A stretch of 49,885 bases of DNA. Origin: an uncultured Acidimicrobiales bacterium. GTDB lineage: Bacteria; Actinomycetota; Acidimicrobiia; Acidimicrobiales; SHLQ01. The notes under the pieces were generated by a model. It saw nothing but the letters and a program-made list of their open reading frames with translations, did no database searches and was not told the DNA's origin. Shown one piece after another: positions 3,447-46,901 of the stretch. The stretch is taken from contig CAYUKM010000001.1 in the NCBI GenBank assembly GCA_964445255.1, positions 1 to 49,885 on the forward strand. The letters run 5' to 3'. A program made the translations under genes and the position numbers. Every line of letters starts with the position of its first letter. The first letter of the stretch is position 1.

Positions 3447-4079
3447 CTATTGGTCAGCTTCGGCCATCTGTTGCTCGATTTGCTCGACGATGTCGACATA
3501 GGTTTCGAGCGGTTGAGCACCGTTGACGAGGTACTGGTTCTCGAAGACGACGGTCGGAATTCCGGTGATGTTCAGCGCCCGCGCGCTGTTGTATTCCTCG
3601 AAGACCAGCTCTTGCATGGCCTCGGCGCGAGTCGCAATGGCCTCGTTATAGGCAACAGCGTCGACGCCGACCTCGACAGCGAGCTCGGTAAGAACAGCCG
3701 GGTTGCTGATGTCTCGGTTGTCTCGGAAATACGCAGCCGTGACGAGATCGTAGTACGCCTTGGCCTTGTCAGGAGCTAGCTCCTCGAGAACCTTGTAGGC
3801 CACCTGCGCTTCGATGCTCGAGTGCGGCTGCGGGTCGTCGGTCACCCAAGGGGTGTACTCAAGCTCTGGCTCGAATTCTCTAGGGCGTAGCCAGCCCTGG
3901 GTGTAATTGATGAAATCTTCGCGTGCCCAATCACGTGGTCCGGTGCGGAGCAAGAATGCCTTCCGCGTAATCTCTACTCGATCTCCGAAGTGTTCTTTCA
4001 ATCTGTCGAGACGCACGGTCCCGATCCAGCACCACTCTCAAATGAAGTCGGAATAGAACGTTATTTGTACGGGTCGCAT
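3447..4079 (-). CDS. DsbA/FrnE-like thiol oxidoreductase with in-frame TGA at 4040..4038 (candidate selenocysteine, motif U-E-W-C)
   Basis: The track ORF 3447..4016 is DsbA-like (GIPTVVFENQYLVNGAQP) but lacks the CxxC motif. The same frame upstream reads ATG(4079) RPVQITFYSDFI TGA EWCWIGT. AGGAG lies 6 nt before ATG 4079. A hairpin starts 8 nt after the TGA. Confidence 0.65.
4003..4029 (-). promoter_or_regulatory. Candidate bacterial SECIS hairpin downstream of TGA 4040..4038
   Basis: mRNA CUG-(GA bulge)-UCGGGAC-[CGUGC]-GUCUCGA-CAG: 3 bp plus 7 bp (one G.U), pentaloop with GU at +25/+26 from the U of UGA. Confidence 0.45.
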
Positions 4080-4108
4080 TCTTAGCTCCTGTGTTTAGTA
4101 GATCTTCG

Positions 4109-4765
4109 TTAGTACAGCGTCTGCCGGTAGAAGGATTCCATATTGTCGTCGATGCGCTTCATCTCTTCGGGAGTAACGGGGCCACTGCCGGTGTGGTCGA
4201 GCATGACCTTGGCCATAGTTGGGAAGTCGCTGCGGTCCTGCTGCACGCTGGGGTCCCAGAGATTCGATCGGCGGAGCGCCTTAGCGCAGTGGATGTAAAC
4301 CTCGTCAACTTGCACCGCAATAGCGATCTTTGGGACACGACCTTTGATGTCCATCGTCTTGAGAAGGTCCGGATCTACTGTGAGCTGAGCGCCTCCGTTG
4401 ACGCGCATAGTTTCCTCAAAGCCTGGGATCAAGAAGATCAGCCCGACCCGAGGGTTCGTCACGATGTTTCTCAGCGTATCGATGCGGTTGTTGCCTGGCC
4501 GGTCAGGAATGAGCAGTGTCTTGTTGTCATCGAGGACCTTGACGAACCCAGGAGGGTCGCCCCGTGGAGTCACGTCGGCGTGGCCGTCGGCAGACTGGGA
4601 TCCAATCAGCATGAACGGCGAACGTTCGATGAAAACGCGAGCGTGTTCATGGATGTAATCCAGACACTTACTGGTGACAAATTCGTTGGCGGGGTGAAAT
4701 AACCGATCTAGGCCAGCAGCGTCGGAAACCAGGTATTCGGGATTGAGCTCGATGGGGTCTACCAT
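4109..4765 (-). CDS. PPOX-type FMN-binding split-barrel flavoprotein
   Basis: 218 aa. PFMLIGSQSADGHADVTPRGDPPGFV and NPRVGLIFLIPG..ETMRVNG are typical of the pyridoxamine 5'-phosphate oxidase-related family. Its stop lies 29 nt upstream of the DsbA-like gene start. Confidence 0.7.
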   Translation of the reverse strand: MVDPIELNPEYLVSDAAGLDRLFHPANEFVTSKCLDYIHEHARVFIERSPFMLIGSQSADGHADVTPRGDPPGFVKVLDDNKTLLIPDRPGNNRIDTLRNIVTNPRVGLIFLIPGFEETMRVNGGAQLTVDPDLLKTMDIKGRVPKIAIAVQVDEVYIHCAKALRRSNLWDPSVQQDRSDFPTMAKVMLDHTGSGPVTPEEMKRIDDNMESFYRQTLY

Positions 4766-6473: not shown

Positions 6474-7808
6474 ATGCGTGACAACAAGCCATTCCTATCG
6501 GTGTTGCCAACCCCCAAGAAGATGATGCGCGAGCGGGCGTTGAAGAAGTTCGCGGAAGAGGACGGCAATATCGTTCCGACCTTCACCGAAGTACAGAACG
6601 ACTTTGTGCACTCCCTTGAGGATGTGCTCGTGAGCTTTCCTGCCGTGGACGTAAAGGTCACCGACGCCACCCGAACCGGCAAGGCTGCCGTTCTGGTAAC
6701 CGGTGGCCTCGGCCAGCACAATGCGCTATTCGTCATCGAGGACGGCAAGGCCAAAGACATTGCCAAGGACTATGGGCTCGAAGGTCCAACAGATCAAGCG
6801 GCGTACGGGATTGCGATCGGCGACATCAACAACGATGGCGAAGACGAAATCCTGATCGGTATGGAGAACGCCATCTTCGTTTACTCGCGTGACGCCGGAA
6901 CGGATCGATACACCCAAACCGAGCTCGACATCGAACTCCCCGAAGCCGACCGGGCAATCCCGCTCAGCATCGCGCTTGGCGACACTCGCAAATCTGGCAA
7001 CCTCGACATCTACGTCAGCACGTTCATCAAGCCAAGGTTCATGACCCCGGTGATCTACAACGATCCCACAACGAGCACCGACAACGCCTTCTATATAAAC
7101 AACGGCGACGGCACGTTCACCGAGGCGACCGCCGAAGCCGGCCTCACCCTTCACCAGAACTGTTTCGAAGCGTCCCTTACCGACTTCACCGGCGACGGCT
7201 ACCCCGACATCGTTGTTGCCCTCAACACCGATCGTCCACGTATGTGGGGCAACAACGGCGACGGGACCTTCACCGAGAAAGACCTACCCGGGGAGTACGG
7301 ATTCTGGATGGGATTGGCTGTTGGCGATACGAACGGCAGCGGTCTGCCCGACTTCTTCCTCGCCAACTCGGGAAAGTCGGTGCCGCAACACTTTGCACGA
7401 GGCGATCTTCGAGACGATCAAATTAGCGACCTCGAATCTCGACACTTTCGCAACCTTGGCAACTATGAGTTCACCGATGTAACCGAAGAGACCGGCACCA
7501 TTACCGAAGCGTTCGCGTGGGGCTCCATCTTCGCCGACTTCACCAACAACGGCCACCTGGACCTTGTCGTTACCGAGAACTACGTCCAGTTCCCAATGAA
7601 GCTCCACGACATTTTGCCAACGGCCGGCAAGTTCTTTCTCCAAGGAATGAATGGCAAGTTCGTGCGAGCCGAGCAAGACGCCGGCGTCGCCAACTACCAC
7701 TTCGGGTACAAGCCATTGGCCGTTGACCTAACCGGCAACGGCTACAACGACCTGGTCATTGGCAACCTGCGTGGGCCATTGCGCATCTTCCTCAACGACC
7801 TCGGCTAG
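6474..7808 (+). CDS. FG-GAP/VCBS repeat protein (CRTAC1 / ASPIC-UnbV-like)
   Basis: Repeated D.N.DG..D / GD.NGDG..D loops (DINNDGEDEILIG, TDFTGDGYPDIVV, GDTNGSGLPDFFL, ADFTNNGHLDLVV, VDLTGNGYNDLVIG). ATG 6474 is preceded by GAGAGAGGA. The longer track start at 6324 overlaps the SDR gene. Confidence 0.65.
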   Translation: MRDNKPFLSVLPTPKKMMRERALKKFAEEDGNIVPTFTEVQNDFVHSLEDVLVSFPAVDVKVTDATRTGKAAVLVTGGLGQHNALFVIEDGKAKDIAKDYGLEGPTDQAAYGIAIGDINNDGEDEILIGMENAIFVYSRDAGTDRYTQTELDIELPEADRAIPLSIALGDTRKSGNLDIYVSTFIKPRFMTPVIYNDPTTSTDNAFYINNGDGTFTEATAEAGLTLHQNCFEASLTDFTGDGYPDIVVALNTDRPRMWGNNGDGTFTEKDLPGEYGFWMGLAVGDTNGSGLPDFFLANSGKSVPQHFARGDLRDDQISDLESRHFRNLGNYEFTDVTEETGTITEAFAWGSIFADFTNNGHLDLVVTENYVQFPMKLHDILPTAGKFFLQGMNGKFVRAEQDAGVANYHFGYKPLAVDLTGNGYNDLVIGNLRGPLRIFLNDLG

Positions 7809-10170: not shown

Positions 10171-11529
10171 ATGGAAGAGGACAACAAAACCACTGAGATT
10201 AGTTTGGCATCAGCGGCCTCTATTGGCATTGGTGGCATGGTTGGGGCCGGCATTTTCGCCATTCTTGGGTTGGCTGCCACGACCACGCGGGGCGCAGTTC
10301 CGATCGCCTTTGTGATCGGCGGTGTGATCGCACTCGTAACCGCGCATTGTTACGGCAAGCTCTCGGTCGCATTCCCCGACCGCGGCGGCACCGTTGCCTA
10401 CATCGATCGCGGCTTTGGGCCCTCTGCGTTCACGGGGATCATCAACGTGTTGCTCGTGCTTTCCTACATCGTGATGGTGGGCTTCTACGCGTCGGCCTTC
10501 GGGCGGTTCGGCGCGAGCTTCTTCAACGACTCCAATTTCTGGCGACACGTACTGATCACTGGGATCGTCTTTGCTCTTGCGGTCGTCAACGTCGTCGGCA
10601 CCGGGCTTGTCGTGAAATACGGAAACCTTGCGAACACGGTGAAGTTGCTGCTTCTTGCCGGCTTCATCGTAATCGGGCTCCTCGGCGGCGACGTCGACTT
10701 CGAACGCTTCGCCCCAAGCGAATGGGTCGGACCGGTAACGCTGATCGCCGGCGCGATGGTGATCTTCCTCAACTACGAGGGGTTCGAGATGATCGCCAAC
10801 GTGTCGAGTGATGTGCCAGAAGAGAAACGGGCAAAGGTCATGCCGCAGGCGTTCTACAGCTCAGTGCTTCTCGTGATCGTCCTCTATGTGTTGATCTCGA
10901 TCGTGGCGGTCGGCTCGCTGTCGCCCACCGTGATTCAGACCGCTGGCGAGTTTGCGCTCGCGGAAGCAGCCGAAAGCATGATCGGGCAAGCGGGATTCAC
11001 TATCATCGTCGTGGCAGCGTTGCTTGCCACCTCATCGGCAATCAACGCCACGCTGTTCTCCTCTGCCCGCATCACCTTCTCGCTCGCCCACGATCGAGAG
11101 ATTCCCAAGGAACTCGGCTCGCTCGTTCGTGAACAACCTCTGCCGGCGTTGCTGTTCGTATGCATCTCGGGAACTCTGCTCGCCAACTTGGTCTCGATCG
11201 ATGTCATTGCGGCGATGGGAAGCGGAGGCTTTCTCCTCACCTTCGCTGCGGTAAACGTCGCGTCGATACGACTCTCGACAAACATTGGTGTAAACCGGCT
11301 CATCCCCATAGTCGGAACCATCCTGTGTCTCACCGCAATCGTCGTACTGTTCACCCAGGTCGGAAGACTCGAACTGATCCTGTTTGTTGGCATGGTCGTT
11401 GCCTCGATAATCATCGAGCTGATCGCCCGCACTCAGGGGTCTGGTATCACTATGCGCTACCGGCCGCACTTGTACGCATCGGCGAAACAATCTCCGAAGA
11501 GTTCACCGGACTCCAAACCTAAGCCCTGA
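10171..11529 (+). CDS. APC-superfamily amino acid permease
   Basis: 452 aa, about 12 hydrophobic segments. N-terminal GIGGMVGAGIFA motif typical of APC transporters. Confidence 0.75.
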   Translation: MEEDNKTTEISLASAASIGIGGMVGAGIFAILGLAATTTRGAVPIAFVIGGVIALVTAHCYGKLSVAFPDRGGTVAYIDRGFGPSAFTGIINVLLVLSYIVMVGFYASAFGRFGASFFNDSNFWRHVLITGIVFALAVVNVVGTGLVVKYGNLANTVKLLLLAGFIVIGLLGGDVDFERFAPSEWVGPVTLIAGAMVIFLNYEGFEMIANVSSDVPEEKRAKVMPQAFYSSVLLVIVLYVLISIVAVGSLSPTVIQTAGEFALAEAAESMIGQAGFTIIVVAALLATSSAINATLFSSARITFSLAHDREIPKELGSLVREQPLPALLFVCISGTLLANLVSIDVIAAMGSGGFLLTFAAVNVASIRLSTNIGVNRLIPIVGTILCLTAIVVLFTQVGRLELILFVGMVVASIIIELIARTQGSGITMRYRPHLYASAKQSPKSSPDSKPKP

Positions 11530-11536
11530 ACAAGGC

Positions 11537-13855
11537 TCAAGAAGCAGTGCGGCGCGGGTTCAAGACGATAAGAACCCCGGCCGCCGCGCTCGCAATTGCC
11601 GCAATCGTCCACGGCATTCCGCCCATCGTTTCGAGTTCGAAGAATTGACGAAGCGACGGCACGAAGAACACCAAGGCGTACCCACCGGCCATTGCCGCTA
11701 CGAGCAGCAGCTTCCATGCCTTTAGCGGCCGGCTGGCGACCAGGAGCACAACGAGTCCAATGGCGAGAAGCGTGACCGTGGCAAGAGTTCTTGCCTCGTC
11801 GATCCCGATGTCGGTGGAGCGGCGGGCGAACTCATAGGCAGCAAATGTTGCGGCCCCGGCGGCGACACCGGCTGGCAGGGAGAACCGCAGCACACGTGGC
11901 AAGAACCCGCCACGCACGCGATCGACTTCGGGAGCAAGCGCAAGAAAGAACCCGGGCAGGCCAATGCTGAATGTTCCGATCAAGGTGAGCTGGCGAGGCA
12001 GAAACGGGAAGGGCGAGCCAACGATGCCTACCAAGACCGTAAGCAGCACTGCGTAGACAGCCTTGGTCACGAAGAGGTTCGCGACACGCTCAACATTGTT
12101 GATGACCTTGCGACCTTCATTGACAACCACCGGCAGCGTTGCGAACGCATTGTCGGTCAACACGAGATCGGCGGCCGAGCGACTCGCTGCACTGCCTGAT
12201 CCCATCGCGATTCCGAGGTTCGCATCCTTGAGAGCGAGCACATCGTTCACTCCGTCGCCAGTCATCGCAACCACGTGGCCGCGCTCTTGGAGCGCCTTTA
12301 CCATCTCTTGTTTCTGCCGAGGAGCGACTCGACCAAAGACCGTGCCCGCTTCCAGCGATGCTCCGACTTGGTCACGCGAGTCGCTGAGCTCTCGGGCATC
12401 GATGGGTGAGCTAAGCATGGTGACACCTGCGCGCTCGGCAATTGCGGCCACCGTCTCGGGGTTATCGCCCGAGATGACCTTGATCGTGACGTTCTGATCG
12501 GCGAAGTATTGCAGCGTGTCCTGAGCATCGGGGCGGATTTCGTCCTCAAGTTCAATAATCGCCATCGTTTCGAGTTCGCCTGGAGCCGAGTCGCCGGTCG
12601 GCCCTTCGTGCGATGCCGCAAGCGCAACGAGCCGCTTCCCCGCAGCGCTTCGTTGCTCGACGATCGACCGACTCGGGTCTTGCTCGGAGAGGAGAACATC
12701 GGGGGCTCCGAGATAGAACCAGCCACGGTCGAGGAAACAGACCGCTGACCATTTTCTGGCACTGGAGAACGGTTCGATTGTTTGGGGCTCCCAGCCGGGC
12801 GAAGCACCAACAGCGGGAGCGATCGCCGCCATGGTGGCGTTAGGTGCTTCGTCGACAGCTGCCATTGCCGCCAGCGCGTTATGGGCTTGTCGCTCCGACC
12901 ATCCTGAGGCCAGGTGTGTCGCGCCGTAGGCGATCTCGCCGGTGGTTATCGTGCCGGTCTTGTCGAGACACAGAACATCGACTCGGGCCAAAACCTCGAC
13001 CGTAGAGAGTTCCGAAGCGAGCGCGTTTCGCCGGGTGAGTTCCAGCACACCAGCAACGAACGCCAAACTGGTCAGCAGCACAAGTCCGTCCGGCACCATG
13101 GCAACCGCTGCAGCGACAGTGCCTTGCAGAGCATCCTGCCATCGCTCTTCGATGTCGAGCAGGACAAGCAACAACAGGATCGAACTGATCGGGATGATTA
13201 CCGTGAGCCACTTCAAGATGACGTTCACCGCTGCTCGCAACTCAGACTCTGCGGCCCGGAACGTTTTTGCTTCGGCGGTCAATCCGGCGGCGAAGCTATC
13301 GGCGCCAACCGCGGTAGCGCGCATGGTGCCGGTTCCGGCAACGACGAAGCTGCCCGAGTGCGCTTCGTCACCGAGAGCCTTTGGGACAGGTAGCGACTCG
13401 CCGGTCAGTTCGGATTCGTCGAGCTGTAAACCAGTCGCGGAGAGGATTTCCCCGTCGACGGGAAGCTGGCCGCCAGCGCTGAGAACGACAACATCGTCGA
13501 GGACGATTTCAGGTACTTCGATCGTGACACGGGAACCGTTGCGGATGACGGTTGCATCCGGCTGGGTCAGGACCTGAAGTCGAGCGAGCTCTCGCCGGGC
13601 CTTGATCTCCTGGGCGATACCCAAGATGCTGTTCGAAACCACCACGCCGACAAAGAGACCGTCTTGCACATGCCCCGAGATAACAATGAGAACAAAGAGG
13701 ACGATCATGATCGCGTTCACCGGCGTGAGGACGTTCAACCCAACGATTTGGGCGACTGAACGGCCCTCCGGCTCGGAAAATTCGTTGGTCTTGCCCTCGC
13801 TGCGCCGCTGAGCAACCTCGGCGTCGGAGAGACCGACTATCTCCGCGCTACTCAA
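11537..13855 (-). CDS. Cation-translocating P-type ATPase (P2-like; no N-terminal heavy-metal-binding domain, no CPx motif)
   Basis: 772 aa with DKTGTIT phosphorylation motif, MTGDGVNDVLALKDANLGIAMG hinge and MVPDGL in a TM helix. Its start overlaps the anti-sigma stop by 4 nt. Confidence 0.85.
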   Translation of the reverse strand: MSSAEIVGLSDAEVAQRRSEGKTNEFSEPEGRSVAQIVGLNVLTPVNAIMIVLFVLIVISGHVQDGLFVGVVVSNSILGIAQEIKARRELARLQVLTQPDATVIRNGSRVTIEVPEIVLDDVVVLSAGGQLPVDGEILSATGLQLDESELTGESLPVPKALGDEAHSGSFVVAGTGTMRATAVGADSFAAGLTAEAKTFRAAESELRAAVNVILKWLTVIIPISSILLLLVLLDIEERWQDALQGTVAAAVAMVPDGLVLLTSLAFVAGVLELTRRNALASELSTVEVLARVDVLCLDKTGTITTGEIAYGATHLASGWSERQAHNALAAMAAVDEAPNATMAAIAPAVGASPGWEPQTIEPFSSARKWSAVCFLDRGWFYLGAPDVLLSEQDPSRSIVEQRSAAGKRLVALAASHEGPTGDSAPGELETMAIIELEDEIRPDAQDTLQYFADQNVTIKVISGDNPETVAAIAERAGVTMLSSPIDARELSDSRDQVGASLEAGTVFGRVAPRQKQEMVKALQERGHVVAMTGDGVNDVLALKDANLGIAMGSGSAASRSAADLVLTDNAFATLPVVVNEGRKVINNVERVANLFVTKAVYAVLLTVLVGIVGSPFPFLPRQLTLIGTFSIGLPGFFLALAPEVDRVRGGFLPRVLRFSLPAGVAAGAATFAAYEFARRSTDIGIDEARTLATVTLLAIGLVVLLVASRPLKAWKLLLVAAMAGGYALVFFVPSLRQFFELETMGGMPWTIAAIASAAAGVLIVLNPRRTAS

Positions 13856-14172
13856 CGACGCTCAGATCGGTTTGAAGGCATGGCTTTACGTTGTGCGACC
13901 AACATCGAGAGTTGAGCTAAATTGCCGGGCGGTTCCGCGGGCTCGTGTCGCCCGGCCGCAGCGGTGAGCTCCATCGTTACCCGTATCTGGGCAAAGAATA
14001 TGGTGCAGCCATTGCAGCCGTCGAGATGGCGTTGGATCGCCTCACGGTCGTGGGCATCGAGCGCATCGTCGAGATAGTGGGTGACGAGCTCGACCACTTC
14101 GACACAGCGCAGTGCTAACGGATTGTCTATGAGGTCGTTTGGGAGGTCGGTGGGCTCAGGCGGCGGTGTCAT
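13852..14172 (-). CDS. Cytoplasmic ZAS-type (HxxxCxxC) anti-sigma factor
   Basis: 106 aa with no TM segment. RHLDGCNGC plus an upstream Cys (ALRCVEV), RsrA/RshA-like arrangement. Overlaps the sigma gene by 17 nt. Confidence 0.65.
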   Translation of the reverse strand: MTPPPEPTDLPNDLIDNPLALRCVEVVELVTHYLDDALDAHDREAIQRHLDGCNGCTIFFAQIRVTMELTAAAGRHEPAEPPGNLAQLSMLVAQRKAMPSNRSERR

Positions 14173-14812
14173 AGTATTCCTCCACCTTCGAGCGCACCGA
14201 TGCTCGAGCGCGGTGCAACAAGACTCGCTGGTTGACCGCGGTTATTCCGAGCGCTTCGCACACGTCGGCTGCGGGCCATTGTTGTACATCTCGGAGTTGC
14301 ACGACTTCACGCTGAGACGATGGAAGCTCGTCGATTGCGTCGCGGACGATCGAGAGCACTTCGTTGCTCTCGATCTCTTCAGAAGGTGTATCTGTCCACG
14401 GCGTTGGAGGTAGCACCCAATCGCTGCCCTGAAGGATGCGATCCCCGAATCGCTCGGGTTCAACCGACGGCATTGCGCCATCTTCTGCAAGGCCGAGTGC
14501 AGCAAAAGGCACGATCTTTGATTCTCGGCCAGCGAGCGTGCGAACCTTGTTCAACATGATTCGATAGATCCAGGTCTTTAGCGAGGAGCGACCTTCGAAC
14601 GAATCCAGCGACTTGACCACCGCAGCCCACGTTTCTTGCACTACTTCTTCGGCAAGAGCGTTAGCTACATATGTTCGTGCAAGACCTCGCAACCCTGGAG
14701 TTAGCTCGGTCACGAGAGCTTCAAAGGCAGCGCTATCGCCTCCACGGATGGCGTCGAGCGTGGTTGGATCAGAACTTGGTAACGGATCATCGATGTTCGG
14801 TGTAACAACCAT
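14156..14812 (-). CDS. ECF-type sigma-70 family factor
   Basis: Region 2 (AEEVVQETWAAVVKSLDSF.....LKTWIYRIMLN) and region 4 (LPSSQREVVQLRDVQQWPAADVCEALGITAVNQRVLLHRAR). Start is uncertain (14812, 14842 or 14860). Confidence 0.8.
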   Translation of the reverse strand: MVVTPNIDDPLPSSDPTTLDAIRGGDSAAFEALVTELTPGLRGLARTYVANALAEEVVQETWAAVVKSLDSFEGRSSLKTWIYRIMLNKVRTLAGRESKIVPFAALGLAEDGAMPSVEPERFGDRILQGSDWVLPPTPWTDTPSEEIESNEVLSIVRDAIDELPSSQREVVQLRDVQQWPAADVCEALGITAVNQRVLLHRARASVRSKVEEYYDTAA

Positions 14813-14930
14813 GGCGTTCGATTGTCTATCACATAGCGGCATAGCAAATAGCCGCCCCACCTGAGGAGTACATTGCGATTATCGACGATCTCATCTCTTC
14901 ACATAGCAAGCACGAAGCAGAGGTAACACT

Positions 14931-16424
14931 ATGAGCGCAACCGACGTGAAAGATTCCGTAGCACCGGGAGAGCCGGAGCTTTCCTCTTCGTTTGCCGAGC
15001 GCTTTCCTGAGCTGGGCGCCGAGTCGAAGGCTATCGATGCCCCAGCGCCCGAGCCGGTCATCGTCAACGACGCCCTCGCGGAGTTTCTCGGCATCGACGT
15101 CGATTGGCTCAACAGCGACGACGGCACCGCGTTTCTCGCGGGTATCAAATTGCCCGCTGGTTCAGCCCCGATCGCCATGGCCTACGCCGGACATCAGTTC
15201 GGCGGGTACTCCCCTGTGCTCGGTGATGGCAGGGCCATTCTCATCGGCGAGGTCGCCGATGCAGACGGAGAGCTAGAAGACATTCATCTCAAAGGGTCCG
15301 GCCGCACGCCGTTCTCTCGCGGAGGCGACGGGCTAGCCACGTTGCCAGCCATGTTGCGCGAATACCTCATGGCCGAAGCCATGCACGCACTGGCGGTCCC
15401 AACCTCGCGGGGCCTCGGCGTAGTGACGACGGGCTTGGGTGTCCGGCGCGAGAAGATCGAAGCCGGAGCCGTGCTCGCACGAGTGGCACGCAGCCACATA
15501 CGTGTGGGGACGTTCGAGTTCACCGCACGACGAGACCCCGAGCTTGTGCGCGAGCTTGTCGACTATTCACTTGAACGCCACTACCCAGAGCTTGCCGATG
15601 CCGAAGTCCCAGCGCTTGCATTGCTCGAAGCTGTGGCCAACGCTCAGGCGAAGCTCATTGCGAAATGGATGCTCTTGGGCTTTGTGCACGGCGTCATGAA
15701 CACCGACAACGTGCTTATCTCCGGCGAGACCATCGATTACGGGCCATGTGCGTTCCTTGAGACCCACGACCCGGCGACCGTCTTTAGTTCAATCGATCGC
15801 CATGGTCGTTATGCATTCGGCAATCAGCCCGTGATTGGCCAGTGGAACCTTGCCCGCCTCGCCGAAACGCTGCTACCGCTGATCGATGACGATGGCGATG
15901 AAGCCGTAGCGAAGGCGACTATTGTCCTCGAGTCTTTCCCAGGACTCCTCAAAGAACATTGGCTCGAAGGCATGGCCTCCAAGATCGGACTCGTGGGACA
16001 GCACGACCAAGCCCTGGGTGCATTGGCCAGCGAATTGGTTGAAATGATGACCCGCTCCGAGGCAGACCACACTTTGACCTTCCGAGCGCTCGCCAAGGTG
16101 CTACGAGGCGAAACTCCATCCGACTTTGCACTCGCGTCCGACAGCGCCTGGGAGAACTGGTCACAACGTTGGCAAGATGCCCTGGGCGATGCGGACAAGA
16201 CCGAAGTCGCTGCGGCAATGGACGCCGTCAACCCGGTGTACATCCCGAGGAATCATCTGGTCGAAGAGGCGCTTAGCGCCGCCGGCGAGGGAAATTTGGA
16301 GCCGTTTCAGCAACTACTCGACGTCACGACGTCACCGTACGTCGAACGTGACGGGCTGGAACGCTACGGTGAACCCGCTCCAACCGGATTCACCGAGAGT
16401 TACCAGACCTTCTGCGGCACCTGA
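14931..16424 (+). CDS. selO: SelO/YdiU-family protein adenylyltransferase (Cys form)
   Basis: 497 aa with GHQFGGYSPVLGDGRAILIGE, HGVMNTDN and the C-terminal TFCGT. Confidence 0.85.
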   Translation: MSATDVKDSVAPGEPELSSSFAERFPELGAESKAIDAPAPEPVIVNDALAEFLGIDVDWLNSDDGTAFLAGIKLPAGSAPIAMAYAGHQFGGYSPVLGDGRAILIGEVADADGELEDIHLKGSGRTPFSRGGDGLATLPAMLREYLMAEAMHALAVPTSRGLGVVTTGLGVRREKIEAGAVLARVARSHIRVGTFEFTARRDPELVRELVDYSLERHYPELADAEVPALALLEAVANAQAKLIAKWMLLGFVHGVMNTDNVLISGETIDYGPCAFLETHDPATVFSSIDRHGRYAFGNQPVIGQWNLARLAETLLPLIDDDGDEAVAKATIVLESFPGLLKEHWLEGMASKIGLVGQHDQALGALASELVEMMTRSEADHTLTFRALAKVLRGETPSDFALASDSAWENWSQRWQDALGDADKTEVAAAMDAVNPVYIPRNHLVEEALSAAGEGNLEPFQQLLDVTTSPYVERDGLERYGEPAPTGFTESYQTFCGT

Positions 16425-16437
16425 GCCGACAAACAAG

Positions 16438-18426
<1,989 letters not shown>

Positions 18427-19119
18427 CTAGACACTCGCGATCCACTCGGGCATCTGCTCTCCGGCCTCGACAGCGATCGGCAGGTGGCTGACTTTGGGCG
18501 CAAGTGGGCACGGCCACTGCCGGTCCCACATGCATGACGGCTGGTAGGAGAAGTTGAAGTCGAGCACCAGTTGGTTTGGCCCTGGGCTCCCCAGGTCTGC
18601 CGATTTAGCGCCGTCCAAGAGGTATCGGCCGGCACCGTATGTCGAGGTTCCGCTCGTGGTGTCGCGGAATGGAAGGAGGAGCCCGCCACCGTAGGCGTCT
18701 AGCCAGAACAAGCCGAGTCGATGACTCACGCCATCGCGGTCAAACACGACCGAAGCAATTTGTGTAAATATCGACGAGCCGCCGGCTACCTTGGCCACCG
18801 TTTCCCCAACAGCCAATGGCTCTACCGTGCCAACAACGTTCCATGAAGGGTCATAGTCGAAATACGGCAGCGCGTTTGCGTCGAGACCATCTGGCTCCAT
18901 CAGGGGGCTTTCTGGATGGGTTAGGAAGAGTTCCCGGCGCCCGTCACGCCAGGCTTGCCAGCTCTTTGGGCCTACGCCCGCCTCTAGCACCTTGTCATAG
19001 AGCGCAGCGACCTTACGTCGGTAATCCACGAGCTTGAGCGCGTGGTCCATGAAGGCGGGATCACTCGGTATTTCAGCGTTGTCAGACATGGTTTTTTGTA
19101 TATCAGCCAGGAAATCCAA
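18427..19119 (-). CDS. DUF1684 domain protein
   Basis: LLLPFRDTTSGTSTYGAGRYLLD is the typical motif. The start may instead be ATG 19089. The stop TAG directly abuts the ATG of the next gene. Confidence 0.65.
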   Translation of the reverse strand: MDFLADIQKTMSDNAEIPSDPAFMDHALKLVDYRRKVAALYDKVLEAGVGPKSWQAWRDGRRELFLTHPESPLMEPDGLDANALPYFDYDPSWNVVGTVEPLAVGETVAKVAGGSSIFTQIASVVFDRDGVSHRLGLFWLDAYGGGLLLPFRDTTSGTSTYGAGRYLLDGAKSADLGSPGPNQLVLDFNFSYQPSCMWDRQWPCPLAPKVSHLPIAVEAGEQMPEWIASV

Positions 19120-45868: not shown

Positions 45869-45909
45869 TCAGTTGATCTAGTGATCGGTGTTGGTAAGGA
45901 ATCTAGTGA
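45869..45909 (-). promoter_or_regulatory. Conserved ~40-nt element, copy B (TCAGTTGATCTAGTGA plus ATCTAGTGA 25 nt away)
   Basis: Near-identical to 33212..33252. It begins 57 nt upstream of the Rv2466c-like start and overlaps the stop codon (45903..45905) of the AhpD-like gene. Confidence 0.5.
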
Positions 45910-46901
45910 CGGCCGGTGAAGGCAGGAATCCCCAGTTCGGTCGTGATAGCACCCATACTGACCGGGACCGGTACACCGGTGGCGTCAAGAATACGGTTCA
46001 TCATCTCGAAGTTGCCAATGACCAATGCAGCGCGTGCGGCACCGTCAACACCAGCGACGTCTTGGAGCTCTTGACGGGTCCTGGCAATGGCATCAGCATT
46101 GCCCTCATAGATTGCATCAGCAAAGGCGAGGAGCTGGCTTCCCGTAGGCAGGTTCGGGTCGAGCTGGCTATCGCCGACCGCCTTGAGGTTGAGGTTTGCG
46201 TTGTTCATGTGGGCGCTCGCACGGAGCATTCCTGAATGAGCAAACAGTCAAAAATAGCAATCGTTGAGTAGCGACGTTCGCGCAGCCAACAGTTCCATTT
46301 GGGTGCGGTCGAGCCCTTTGTTGATCCCGTAGCTACCCATCTCGGCGTAGCTCAGGTACAGAGCCCCATGGAGTTGCTCTTGCGCTAGATCTTCAGCTGG
46401 CACAGCAGACAGCGCTGAAGTCGCGCCGGCACCGCCAACCATCGGCACCCACGCCGAGCGCCGCTTTGCGCCGGGTACGACCGTGTTGTGTGCCTCGCCT
46501 GGGATCGCGTCAGGGTAGGGTTCGAGACGGTTGCCGAGCCCAACGGTCGCGGTGTCGATTGCTGTCGTTCGAGAAATGACGCCGACGAGCTCAACATAGT
46601 GCAGCGGGCTGAGTCCATCGGCGACGAAACCTTCAACCATGACCTTGGTGATACTGCCAGCGTCGGTGGCAACAAGCACTGCCGCACGGCGATCGACGTC
46701 GTTCAGCGAGCTCGCTTCGGGTTCGGGGAGGTCTCGCCGGGCAGCCCTGCCGACGTGGGCAATATCGATGCGTTGTTGACCCGTCCACCATGCGCCCGGC
46801 TCGGCCAGTTGTTCCCACTGCTGGGTTAAGACAGCCCGGGTGCGTTCGGGTATAGGCAAGCTTTGCGGTGTAGAGGGTGCGAAGGGTTGAACGTCAGTCA
46901 T
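45903..46901 (-). CDS. AhpD/carboxymuconolactone-decarboxylase-like protein with in-frame TGA at 46250..46248 (candidate selenocysteine, E-x11-C-x2-U-x3-H)
   Basis: Track ORFs 46248..46901 and 45903..46229 are in the same frame, separated only by TGA plus 6 codons. The joined sequence reads ...MELLAARTSLLNDCYF-TGA-LFAHSGMLRAS.... A hairpin lies downstream. Confidence 0.7.
46212..46232 (-). promoter_or_regulatory. Candidate bacterial SECIS hairpin downstream of TGA 46250..46248
   Basis: mRNA GG-(AA bulge)-UGCUC-[CGUGC]-GAGCG-CC, with loop GU at +29/+30 from the U of UGA. The apical CCGUGCG is the same as in the DsbA-like gene. Confidence 0.45.

Follow-up and report, generated by a model that had tools for sequence, protein, structure and literature searches.

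An in-frame UGA as a probable selenocysteine codon in a DsbA/FrnE-like gene of uncultured Acidimicrobiales

Does an in-frame TGA that interrupts the redox motif of a DsbA-like gene mark a broken gene, a wrongly placed start or a codon for selenocysteine (Sec)? This question is raised by positions 3447..4079 (minus strand) of a 49,885-nucleotide stretch of DNA from an uncultured Acidimicrobiales bacterium (contig CAYUKM010000001.1 of assembly GCA_964445255.1), which, at its full length, is referred to here as the window. The gene would encode a Sec-containing DsbA/FrnE-like thiol-disulfide oxidoreductase of 210 amino acids (aa), in which UGA codon 14 (4038..4040) occupies position 1 of a U-E-W-C redox motif. 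A first-pass annotation, made from the letters of the window, had placed this TGA at the first-Cys position of a CxxC motif and had favored a Sec-containing oxidoreductase over a pseudogene. Both proposals are borne out by our comparison: the motif reads U-E-W-C where homologues have C-P-W-C, the TGA is conserved among relatives, the hairpin that follows it covaries and synonymous sites within that hairpin are frozen. Judged from these comparative data, codon 14 is very probably a real Sec codon.

The frame can be followed on the minus strand from MRPVQITFYSDFI through the TGA at 4040..4038, EWCWIGT and the GTG at 4016..4014 to RLD, and further to the stop codon TAG at 3449..3447. Its predicted start is the ATG at 4079..4077, which lies 29 nt past the TAA (4111..4109) of an upstream PNPOx-family gene (4765..4109) and is preceded, at a distance of 6 nt, by the Shine-Dalgarno sequence AGGAG (4086..4090). 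The list of open reading frames (ORFs) offers only a 189-aa frame (3447..4016) that starts at the GTG (4014..4016), ahead of which there is no usable Shine-Dalgarno sequence; in the full-length frame the same GTG would be Val22 and, at the same time, the GUG of the hairpin's apical loop. With the TGA read as Cys, the protein matches the Pfam DSBA domain (PF01323) with E = 8e-23 and 81.7 bits (cut-off 25.6) over residues 5–196. Since the domain spans these residues of the read-through protein, the 189-aa ORF is left without the first strand and the active site. In all of these readings of the translation signals and of the shortened ORF, the first-pass annotation proved accurate.

For the comparison with relatives, one genome per GTDB species was scanned, which gave 196 confirmed relatives; the locus counts given here refer to the best 80 of them, reduced to 73 distinct sequences for alignment statistics. 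We found that codon 14 is TGA in 77 of the best 80 loci and TAA or TAG in none, while the remaining three, from Deltaproteobacteria and Myxococcota (L087–L089), carry TGC. The TGA-bearing frame of the 77 loci reads (V/I)x(S/T)D(F/Y)(L/I)-stop-(P/E)-W-C. Protein identity to the window protein ranges from 36 to 94% across the best 80 loci, in which the peptide ahead of the stop is conserved as well as the peptide behind it. The two alignment checks that the first-pass annotation had suggested both came out in favor of its reading. The column of codon 14 holds TGA in the 77 Acidimicrobiia-type loci, TGC in the three proteobacterial ones and Cys in full-length homologues and in FrnE; moreover, the N-terminal 13 codons are kept together with the TGA, and none of the orthologues starts at the downstream GTG by its sequence, as this start appears in the gene calls alone.

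The best 80 loci come nearly all from metagenome-assembled genomes (MAGs) of Acidimicrobiales/Acidimicrobiia, including Candidatus Microthrix, MedAcidi-G3 and 'Aldehydirespiratoraceae', together with a single MAG of Rubrobacter and a few short, probably mis-binned contigs. The latter include contigs assigned to MAGs that bear the names Pirellulaceae, Verrucomicrobiales and Actinomyces sp. (L010, L023 and L062); close orthologues of the Acidimicrobiales gene, one of them at 94% identity, are filed under these names, so the binning is probably in error. The nearest GTDB representative MAG is CAZBTI01 (SRP114822_co1_51), with 92% protein identity, and orthologues also occur on the complete chromosomes OZ240617, OZ240616 and OZ242187. 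The window sequence itself belongs to a 132.5 kb contig (ena:ERZ27295637:k141_697973), and three assemblies from other samples are identical to it, TGA included, which makes four in all (L001–L004).

Within the motif, the TGC codon at 4029..4031 specifies Cys17, the predicted resolving residue of U-x-x-C and the sole Cys of the 210-aa protein; its column is Cys in 73 of 73 distinct sequences. Pro175 is likewise invariant among relatives and probably forms the cis-Pro loop of the thioredoxin fold. The residue next to Sec is more variable: U-P-W-C is found in 70 of the 73 distinct relatives, and Glu at codon 15 (GAG, 4035..4037) occurs in this genome and in the two closest species (L010 and L015). 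In thioredoxin-fold enzymes the redox potential is tuned by the residues between the two redox positions, so the Glu15 sub-clade may differ in function.

Genome-wide reassignment of TGA was considered as well and ruled out, because TGA terminates 23 of the 58 called genes on the contig stretch (21 end in TAG and 14 in TAA). One of these 23 TGAs is itself a second Sec codon, described below, and the called genes show full-length Pfam matches. The remark of the first-pass annotation that TGA serves as an ordinary stop in this DNA is thus correct.

Directly 3' of the TGA, the transcript may fold into a candidate selenocysteine insertion sequence (SECIS) hairpin at 4005..4025 (minus strand), in which UCGGGAC (4024..4018) pairs with GUCUCGA (4012..4006) around the loop CGUGC (4017..4013). 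The A4025/C4005 positions that flank the stem are mismatched here and form a G-C pair in most orthologues. In the alignment of the 73 distinct sequences, which runs from the TGA to +45, the consensus is an 8-bp stem that joins columns 16–23 (GUCGGGAC) with columns 29–36 (GUCUCGAC) and is closed by the loop NGUNC (columns 24–28). Loop bases G25 and U26 are invariant, i.e., they stand 25–26 nt from the U of UGA in every sequence. The hairpin announced by the first-pass annotation thus exists as a conserved element 3' of the TGA, only not at the place indicated: the conserved stem starts 12–13 nt past the TGA rather than 8 nt downstream, and the pairing at 8 nt (CUG/CAG) is present only in the window's own fold and is not conserved.

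Three lines of comparison bear on this hairpin. First, standard pairs are present in 94.2% of the cells of the 73-sequence alignment and in 30–46% when the 3' partners are slid by 1–3 columns. Second, changes on both sides of a pair were observed in 21 cells, as opposed to 5.5 ± 1.9 in shuffles. Pair 21–31 varies among GC, CG and UA and pair 22–30 among AU, GC and UA; of these covarying pairs, one couples the third position of Gly to the first position of Leu/Val/Ile and the other the first position of Thr/Ala/Ser to the third position of Arg. Third, codon choice in the stem deviates from that in the rest of the same genes: GGG is used for Gly +6 in 59 of 67 cases (18% elsewhere), CGT for Arg +9 in 57 of 73 (13% elsewhere), CTC for Leu +10 in 93% (34% elsewhere) and GTC for Val +5 in about 90% (40% elsewhere). 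The third positions of Pro +1 and of both loop codons are free to vary, with an entropy of 1.3–1.9 bits. Taken as comparative evidence, these data show that the hairpin is under selection as an RNA structure, and its features fit a bacterial SECIS.

A 7-bp hairpin, CGCGAGC-GUUC-GCUUGCG (5594..5611 of L087), can also be folded at the SECIS position of one of the Cys-form homologues, from a Deltaproteobacteria MAG. Its energy is not distinctive, and the other two Cys-form loci are without such a hairpin; it could be a fossil SECIS or a product of chance.

Is the DsbA-like gene the only candidate of this kind? A descriptor search for coding frames with an in-frame TGA, a redox motif and, 3' of the TGA, a hairpin with a G/GU loop brought up an AhpD-related gene, a peroxiredoxin (Prx) gene and a SelW-like gene. 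The first of these lies in the window (45903..46901, minus strand) and would encode a 332-aa AhpD-related (seleno)protein with the motif C-Y-F-U, its TGA being located at 46250..46248. The read-through protein from 46901 to 45903 contains ...LLNDCYF-U-LFAHSGML... and matches, over residues 18–324, the NCBIfam model NF041238, 'alkylhydroperoxidase-related (seleno)protein', with E = 4e-69 and 233.5 bits (cut-off 175). Gene callers split this gene into ORFs of 217 and about 101 aa. Among the 120 orthologue clusters listed, nearly all cover only the part ahead of the TGA, and the seven truncated orthologues that we read all break off right after ...N(D/H)C(Y/F/V)(F/Y). In P0198, a Cys form of full length, the site reads NACFYCTRAH, and one match carries the NCBI '(seleno)protein' name. 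The candidate hairpin of this gene, UGCUC-CGUGC-GAGCG (46228..46214), has the same apical loop, CGUGC, as that of the DsbA-like gene. The AhpD-related gene, as read from its sequence, supports the prediction that Sec is decoded in this genome.

The other two candidates were found on Acidimicrobiales MAG contigs that also bear the Sec DsbA-like gene. Directly downstream of the DsbA-like gene of L052 there is an AhpC/TSA peroxiredoxin gene with the motif T-P-G-U (10617..11087, TGA at 10746), and L086 carries a gene for an Rdx/SelW-like protein with the motif C-V-P-U (6709..6957, TGA at 6748). Both are followed, 11–13 nt past the UGA, by perfect hairpins with a CGUGA loop, each being a single observation. 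Two broader screens yielded no additional candidates: an all-against-all search for conserved in-frame TGAs gave nothing usable, as off-frame and antisense translations of conserved genes dominated its output, and a screen of read-through ORFs by GC content at codon positions was too noisy for the same reason.

Several points weigh against a Sec codon and its SECIS and have to be set beside this evidence. The folding energy of the hairpin alone is ordinary (z = +0.58 and −0.30 relative to shuffled sequence), and the minimum free energy fold of the 45 nt selects a structure different from the conserved hairpin; because single-sequence folding is not distinctive, it is the comparative data that support the structure. 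Owing to the common ancestry of the 73 aligned sequences, the shuffle controls overstate significance. No Rfam SECIS or tRNA-Sec model matched the whole window at the gathering threshold or positions 3900..4120 in a permissive scan, the latter giving only a chance miRNA match (E = 6); Rfam covers bacterial SECIS elements poorly. Neither a tRNA-Sec gene (ARAGORN) nor selA, selB or selD (tblastn with the E. coli SelA, SelB and SelD proteins) was detected when the window, its flanks of about 20 kb from this genome and related loci of about 1.3 Mb were searched; these machinery searches covered about 70 kb of this genome and are not informative on the whole of it. Finally, selenium incorporation and enzyme activity in this clade are predictions from sequence comparison only.

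As regards the machinery, the first-pass annotation had regarded Sec use as uncommon in actinobacteria of this type, which the literature contradicts. SelD, SelA and SelB are present in Ilumatobacter coccineus, I. nonamiensis and Candidatus Microthrix parvicella, for which 15, 10 and 7 selenoproteins, respectively, are recorded, and five selenoproteins are recorded for Rubrobacter xylanophilus (Peng et al., 2016; PMC5029168, Tables S1 and S2). A 2026 preprint examined 84 complete Actinomarinales genomes and reports that each of them has selA, selB, selC and selD. From these published data and from the other selenoprotein genes described above, two indirect but strong lines of evidence, we infer that the bacterium studied here possesses the Sec machinery.

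Among the other explanations, the one that survives best is that the UGA is read through without Sec, either through near-cognate insertion of Trp or Cys or through a suppressor specific to the lineage, and that the hairpin is a general stimulator of read-through. It draws on the Sec machinery not having been observed in the roughly 70 kb of this genome, and on the fact that Cys can be mis-inserted at Sec codons under selenium scarcity. However, the site is the catalytic Cys of CxxC, the classic position of Sec/Cys exchange, and the small apical loop, whose invariant G-U keeps a constant spacing to the UGA, is a hallmark of bacterial SECIS elements. The same arrangement recurs in three other classical selenoprotein families (AhpD-related, Prx and SelW-like) in this genome or in its relatives, SelA, SelB and SelD occur in cultured Acidimicrobiales, and published lists of selenoproteins already include the family with its UxxC motif (PMC1088965; PMC13188914). 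We consider read-through of this kind very unlikely.

Even less probable, in our opinion, is that the true gene is the 189-aa ORF beginning at GTG 4016, a DsbA-like domain devoid of the redox motif, with the upstream 13 codons representing a leader peptide or non-coding DNA. This is the product given by all automatic gene calls in the databases, and single-Cys or Cys-less DsbA-like proteins do exist. Yet such a product would lose strand β1 and the active site, whereas the DSBA match of the long form starts at residue 5; the GTG has no Shine-Dalgarno sequence comparable with the AGGAG in front of ATG 4079; the upstream ...(V/I)xSDF(L/I) and the post-stop xWC are conserved like the rest of the protein; and the callers do not agree on a consistent start, choosing a later Met in some orthologues (P0021–P0023). 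The weakest account, a pseudogene or a sequencing or assembly error at 4038..4040 in a former CxxC DsbA-like gene, would be suggested by a lone in-frame stop in one contig, which resembles a nonsense mutation or a base-call error, and by the lack of Sec machinery genes nearby, but it has next to no chance given the identical TGA in four independent assemblies from different samples, its presence in 77 species-level genomes from many different projects over the whole range of protein identity and never as TAA or TAG, the peptide conserved on both sides of the stop and the RNA hairpin under selection just downstream. Because the TGA and its flanking peptide are conserved across the order, we exclude that the gene is a pseudogene, that the TGA is a sequencing error and that translation truly starts at the GTG, and retain the Sec codon as the reading of this locus.

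If the UGA is decoded as Sec, the gene would operate as follows. SelB-GTP carrying Sec-tRNA(Sec) would bind the hairpin on the translating mRNA and supply Sec at the UGA in place of release factor 2, after which translation would proceed through the hairpin, which encodes V/I-G-T-V-R-L-D of helix α1. In the folded protein, Sec14 would be the exposed nucleophile of the thioredoxin-fold CxxC and would attack substrate disulfides or oxidised thiols, forming a selenenylsulfide with Cys17. The enzyme would then be returned to its reduced state inside the cell, the candidate reductants being thioredoxin reductase/thioredoxin and a low-molecular-weight thiol. The DSBA domain begins 4 residues after the protein N-terminus and there is no signal peptide, and the protein is thus presumably cytoplasmic. 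By analogy with FrnE of Deinococcus radiodurans, it would probably reduce or isomerise disulfides in the cytoplasm as part of the defence against oxidative stress.

How such a gene appears in public records follows from the same arrangement. Gene callers would halt at the UGA and resume at the GUG within the hairpin loop, leaving the truncated 189-aa ORF in the public records examined. A protein database search gave 33 relatives, of which 20 sequences were read. The orthologue-level clusters (43–92% identity) are 175–192 aa long and reach a query coverage of at most 90%. Sixteen of the 20 sequences begin at M/V-RLD or further downstream, and the four with complete N-termini (P0026, P0027, P0029 and P0031) read SDYLCPWC or SDFLCPWC. 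Entries of NCBI origin are cut at the same place. In some orthologues (P0021–P0023) the called start is a Met further downstream, from which we conclude that gene callers are inconsistent about the start. In a scan of 1.84 billion representatives, 1189 relatives were found at E ≤ 1e-3; some of the best of these begin at query residue 1 and look truncated, others have about 22–29 extra N-terminal residues. As the relatives differ in N-terminal length, Sec and Cys forms probably coexist more widely. The truncated entries mean that the active site of the enzyme is missing from protein databases, and since the AhpD-related gene of this genome and the Prx and SelW-like genes of related MAGs are cut likewise, the selenoproteomes of Acidimicrobiales MAGs would be systematically under-counted.

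The genetic context of the Sec DsbA-like gene was compared as well. The PNPOx-family neighbor is kept only in a close clade of 9 loci and no gene is linked across the whole family; thus, no functional partner can be derived from its neighborhood. Elsewhere in the window (11537..19119) there is a cluster that looks related to redox stress and consists of genes for a P-type ATPase (11537..13855), a zf-HC2 anti-sigma factor (13852..14172), a probable sigma factor (14156..14860), a SelO-family protein (14931..16424), a DsbH-like thioredoxin-domain protein (16438..18426) and a DUF1684 protein (18427..19119). In a relative with 71% identity (L005/L013), this block is located directly upstream of the Sec DsbA-like gene. 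About 5 kb beyond position 1 of the window, on the same contig (L001 15506..17872), lies a gene encoding a 788-aa protein with DinB_2, FGE-sulfatase and methyltransferase domains, an order that we take to be that of the ovothiol synthase OvoA; this would place a further thiol-redox function close to the Sec gene.

What would the presence of Sec at this site mean? The decoding of Sec as it is known remains unchanged, and the protein family was predicted two decades ago; the value of the locus consists in the correction of its annotation and in the hint that an abundant order has a set of redox proteins dependent on selenium. The retention of the TGA and the hairpin in 77 species-level genomes suggests that Sec is advantageous for a cytoplasmic disulfide oxidoreductase in these mostly aerobic bacteria and points to selenium dependence in an environmentally abundant order. 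A bolder picture can be drawn, to which we give little credence at present: an order-wide Sec FrnE-like enzyme of the Acidimicrobiales, which are largely aerobic and often marine, would have seen practically no reversion to Cys and, with its SECIS locked in the codons of helix α1, would be part of a selenium-based cytoplasmic thiol-redox network together with Sec-peroxiredoxin, Sec-AhpD-related and SelW-like proteins. If this were true, selenium would be a hidden requirement of an abundant environmental order of actinobacteria, overlooked through truncated gene calls.

It remains to place the predicted protein among known systems. Periplasmic DsbA of the E. coli type does not fit: the window protein has no N-terminal extension, CPHC is not its motif, DsbA structures match only marginally and in the C-terminal part (E = 0.003–0.009), and the match to the NCBIfam DsbA model reaches 17 bits (cut-off 279). 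The mycothiol-dependent reductases resembling Rv2466c are cytoplasmic proteins of the DsbA fold with an N-terminal CPWC right after strand β1, and their motif region aligns with that of the Sec protein. Such a protein is encoded in the window itself by a Cys paralogue (PF22234; 45155..45811, minus strand), which reads MTRISFYYDPSCPWCWITS near its N-terminus and whose first Cys is paired by BLASTP with the TGA codon, in agreement with the first-pass annotation. Nevertheless, this paralogue represents a different subfamily, as the Sec protein has no PF22234 match and the motif region alone is common to both. A third DsbA-fold gene, of the FrnE type, encodes 214 aa with SDVMCPWC and is located about 2.6 kb past the end of the window (L092 2691..3335). 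At least three genes for cytoplasmic DsbA-fold proteins, i.e., the Sec form, the Rv2466c-like CPWC paralogue and the FrnE-type SDVMCPWC protein, are thus found within about 50 kb.

Among solved structures, SCO1869 (3gl5; E = 1.6e-12) and D. radiodurans FrnE (5cnw; E = 9e-12, residues 4–202) are nearest to the window protein in sequence, and both have CPWC at the aligned site. FrnE is a cytoplasmic disulfide reductase/isomerase of the DsbA family involved in oxidative stress and cadmium tolerance; its active site is 22-CP(W/F)C-25, and a C-terminal CxxxxC is optional, being present in many members (PMC8945050). The window protein resembles D. radiodurans FrnE (DR_0659) in having no signal peptide, in the helical insertion of DsbA and in the position of the CxxC right after strand β1, and SDIACPWCYIG of FrnE aligns with SDFI-U-EWCWIG. 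Relative to the CP(W/F)C motif, Trp and the second Cys are kept, whereas the first Cys is replaced by Sec and the Pro at motif position 2 by Glu (Pro in most orthologues). Another difference is that D. radiodurans FrnE regenerates via its C-terminal CxxxxC tail, which the window protein does not have. The same tail is missing in the FrnE proteins of S. roseofulvus and D. maricopensis (PMC8945050), and because these are FrnE proteins nonetheless, its lack does not exclude FrnE membership.

At the RNA level, the nearest model is the SECIS of E. coli fdhF, which likewise lies within the coding region as a hairpin directly 3' of the UGA and carries a conserved G-U in its apical loop at a distance of some 20-odd nt. 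Counted from the first base of the UGA, this loop pair is G23/U24 in fdhF and +25/+26 in the window hairpin. Unlike the fdhF element, the window hairpin is a simple 8-bp stem with a 5-nt loop, has no conserved bulged U and is unrelated in sequence.

The first-pass annotation had mentioned that Sec forms of DsbA-like proteins had been predicted, and such a family has indeed been on record since 2005, when Zhang, Fomenko and Gladyshev described DsbA-like selenoproteins (COG2761, UxxC) from nine sequences of the Sargasso Sea metagenome (PMC1088965). The family was counted in 41 organisms in 2016, and 'DsbA-like protein form 1' is still listed in reviews of 2022 and 2026 (PMC13188914). NCBIfam holds no dedicated model for it, the best match of the window protein there being the Rcas_1661 (seleno)lipoprotein model with 34 bits (cut-off 190). 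In the literature searched we found no description of a near-universal Sec form in Acidimicrobiales or of the consistent truncation by gene calls. The window protein shares with the family the DSBA domain, Sec at the first position of UxxC, Cys homologues in the same column and a 3' stem-loop with a G in a small loop; the likeness to the exemplars AACY01178397 and NIP15863.1 is by family description, not by sequence. Because DsbA-like UxxC selenoproteins have been described since 2005, the gene is an addition to a known family, of which it is a new, unannotated member. It differs from the family as described in that its clade extends across nearly all sampled Acidimicrobiales and that the sub-clade of the window carries U-E-W-C instead of U-P-W-C.

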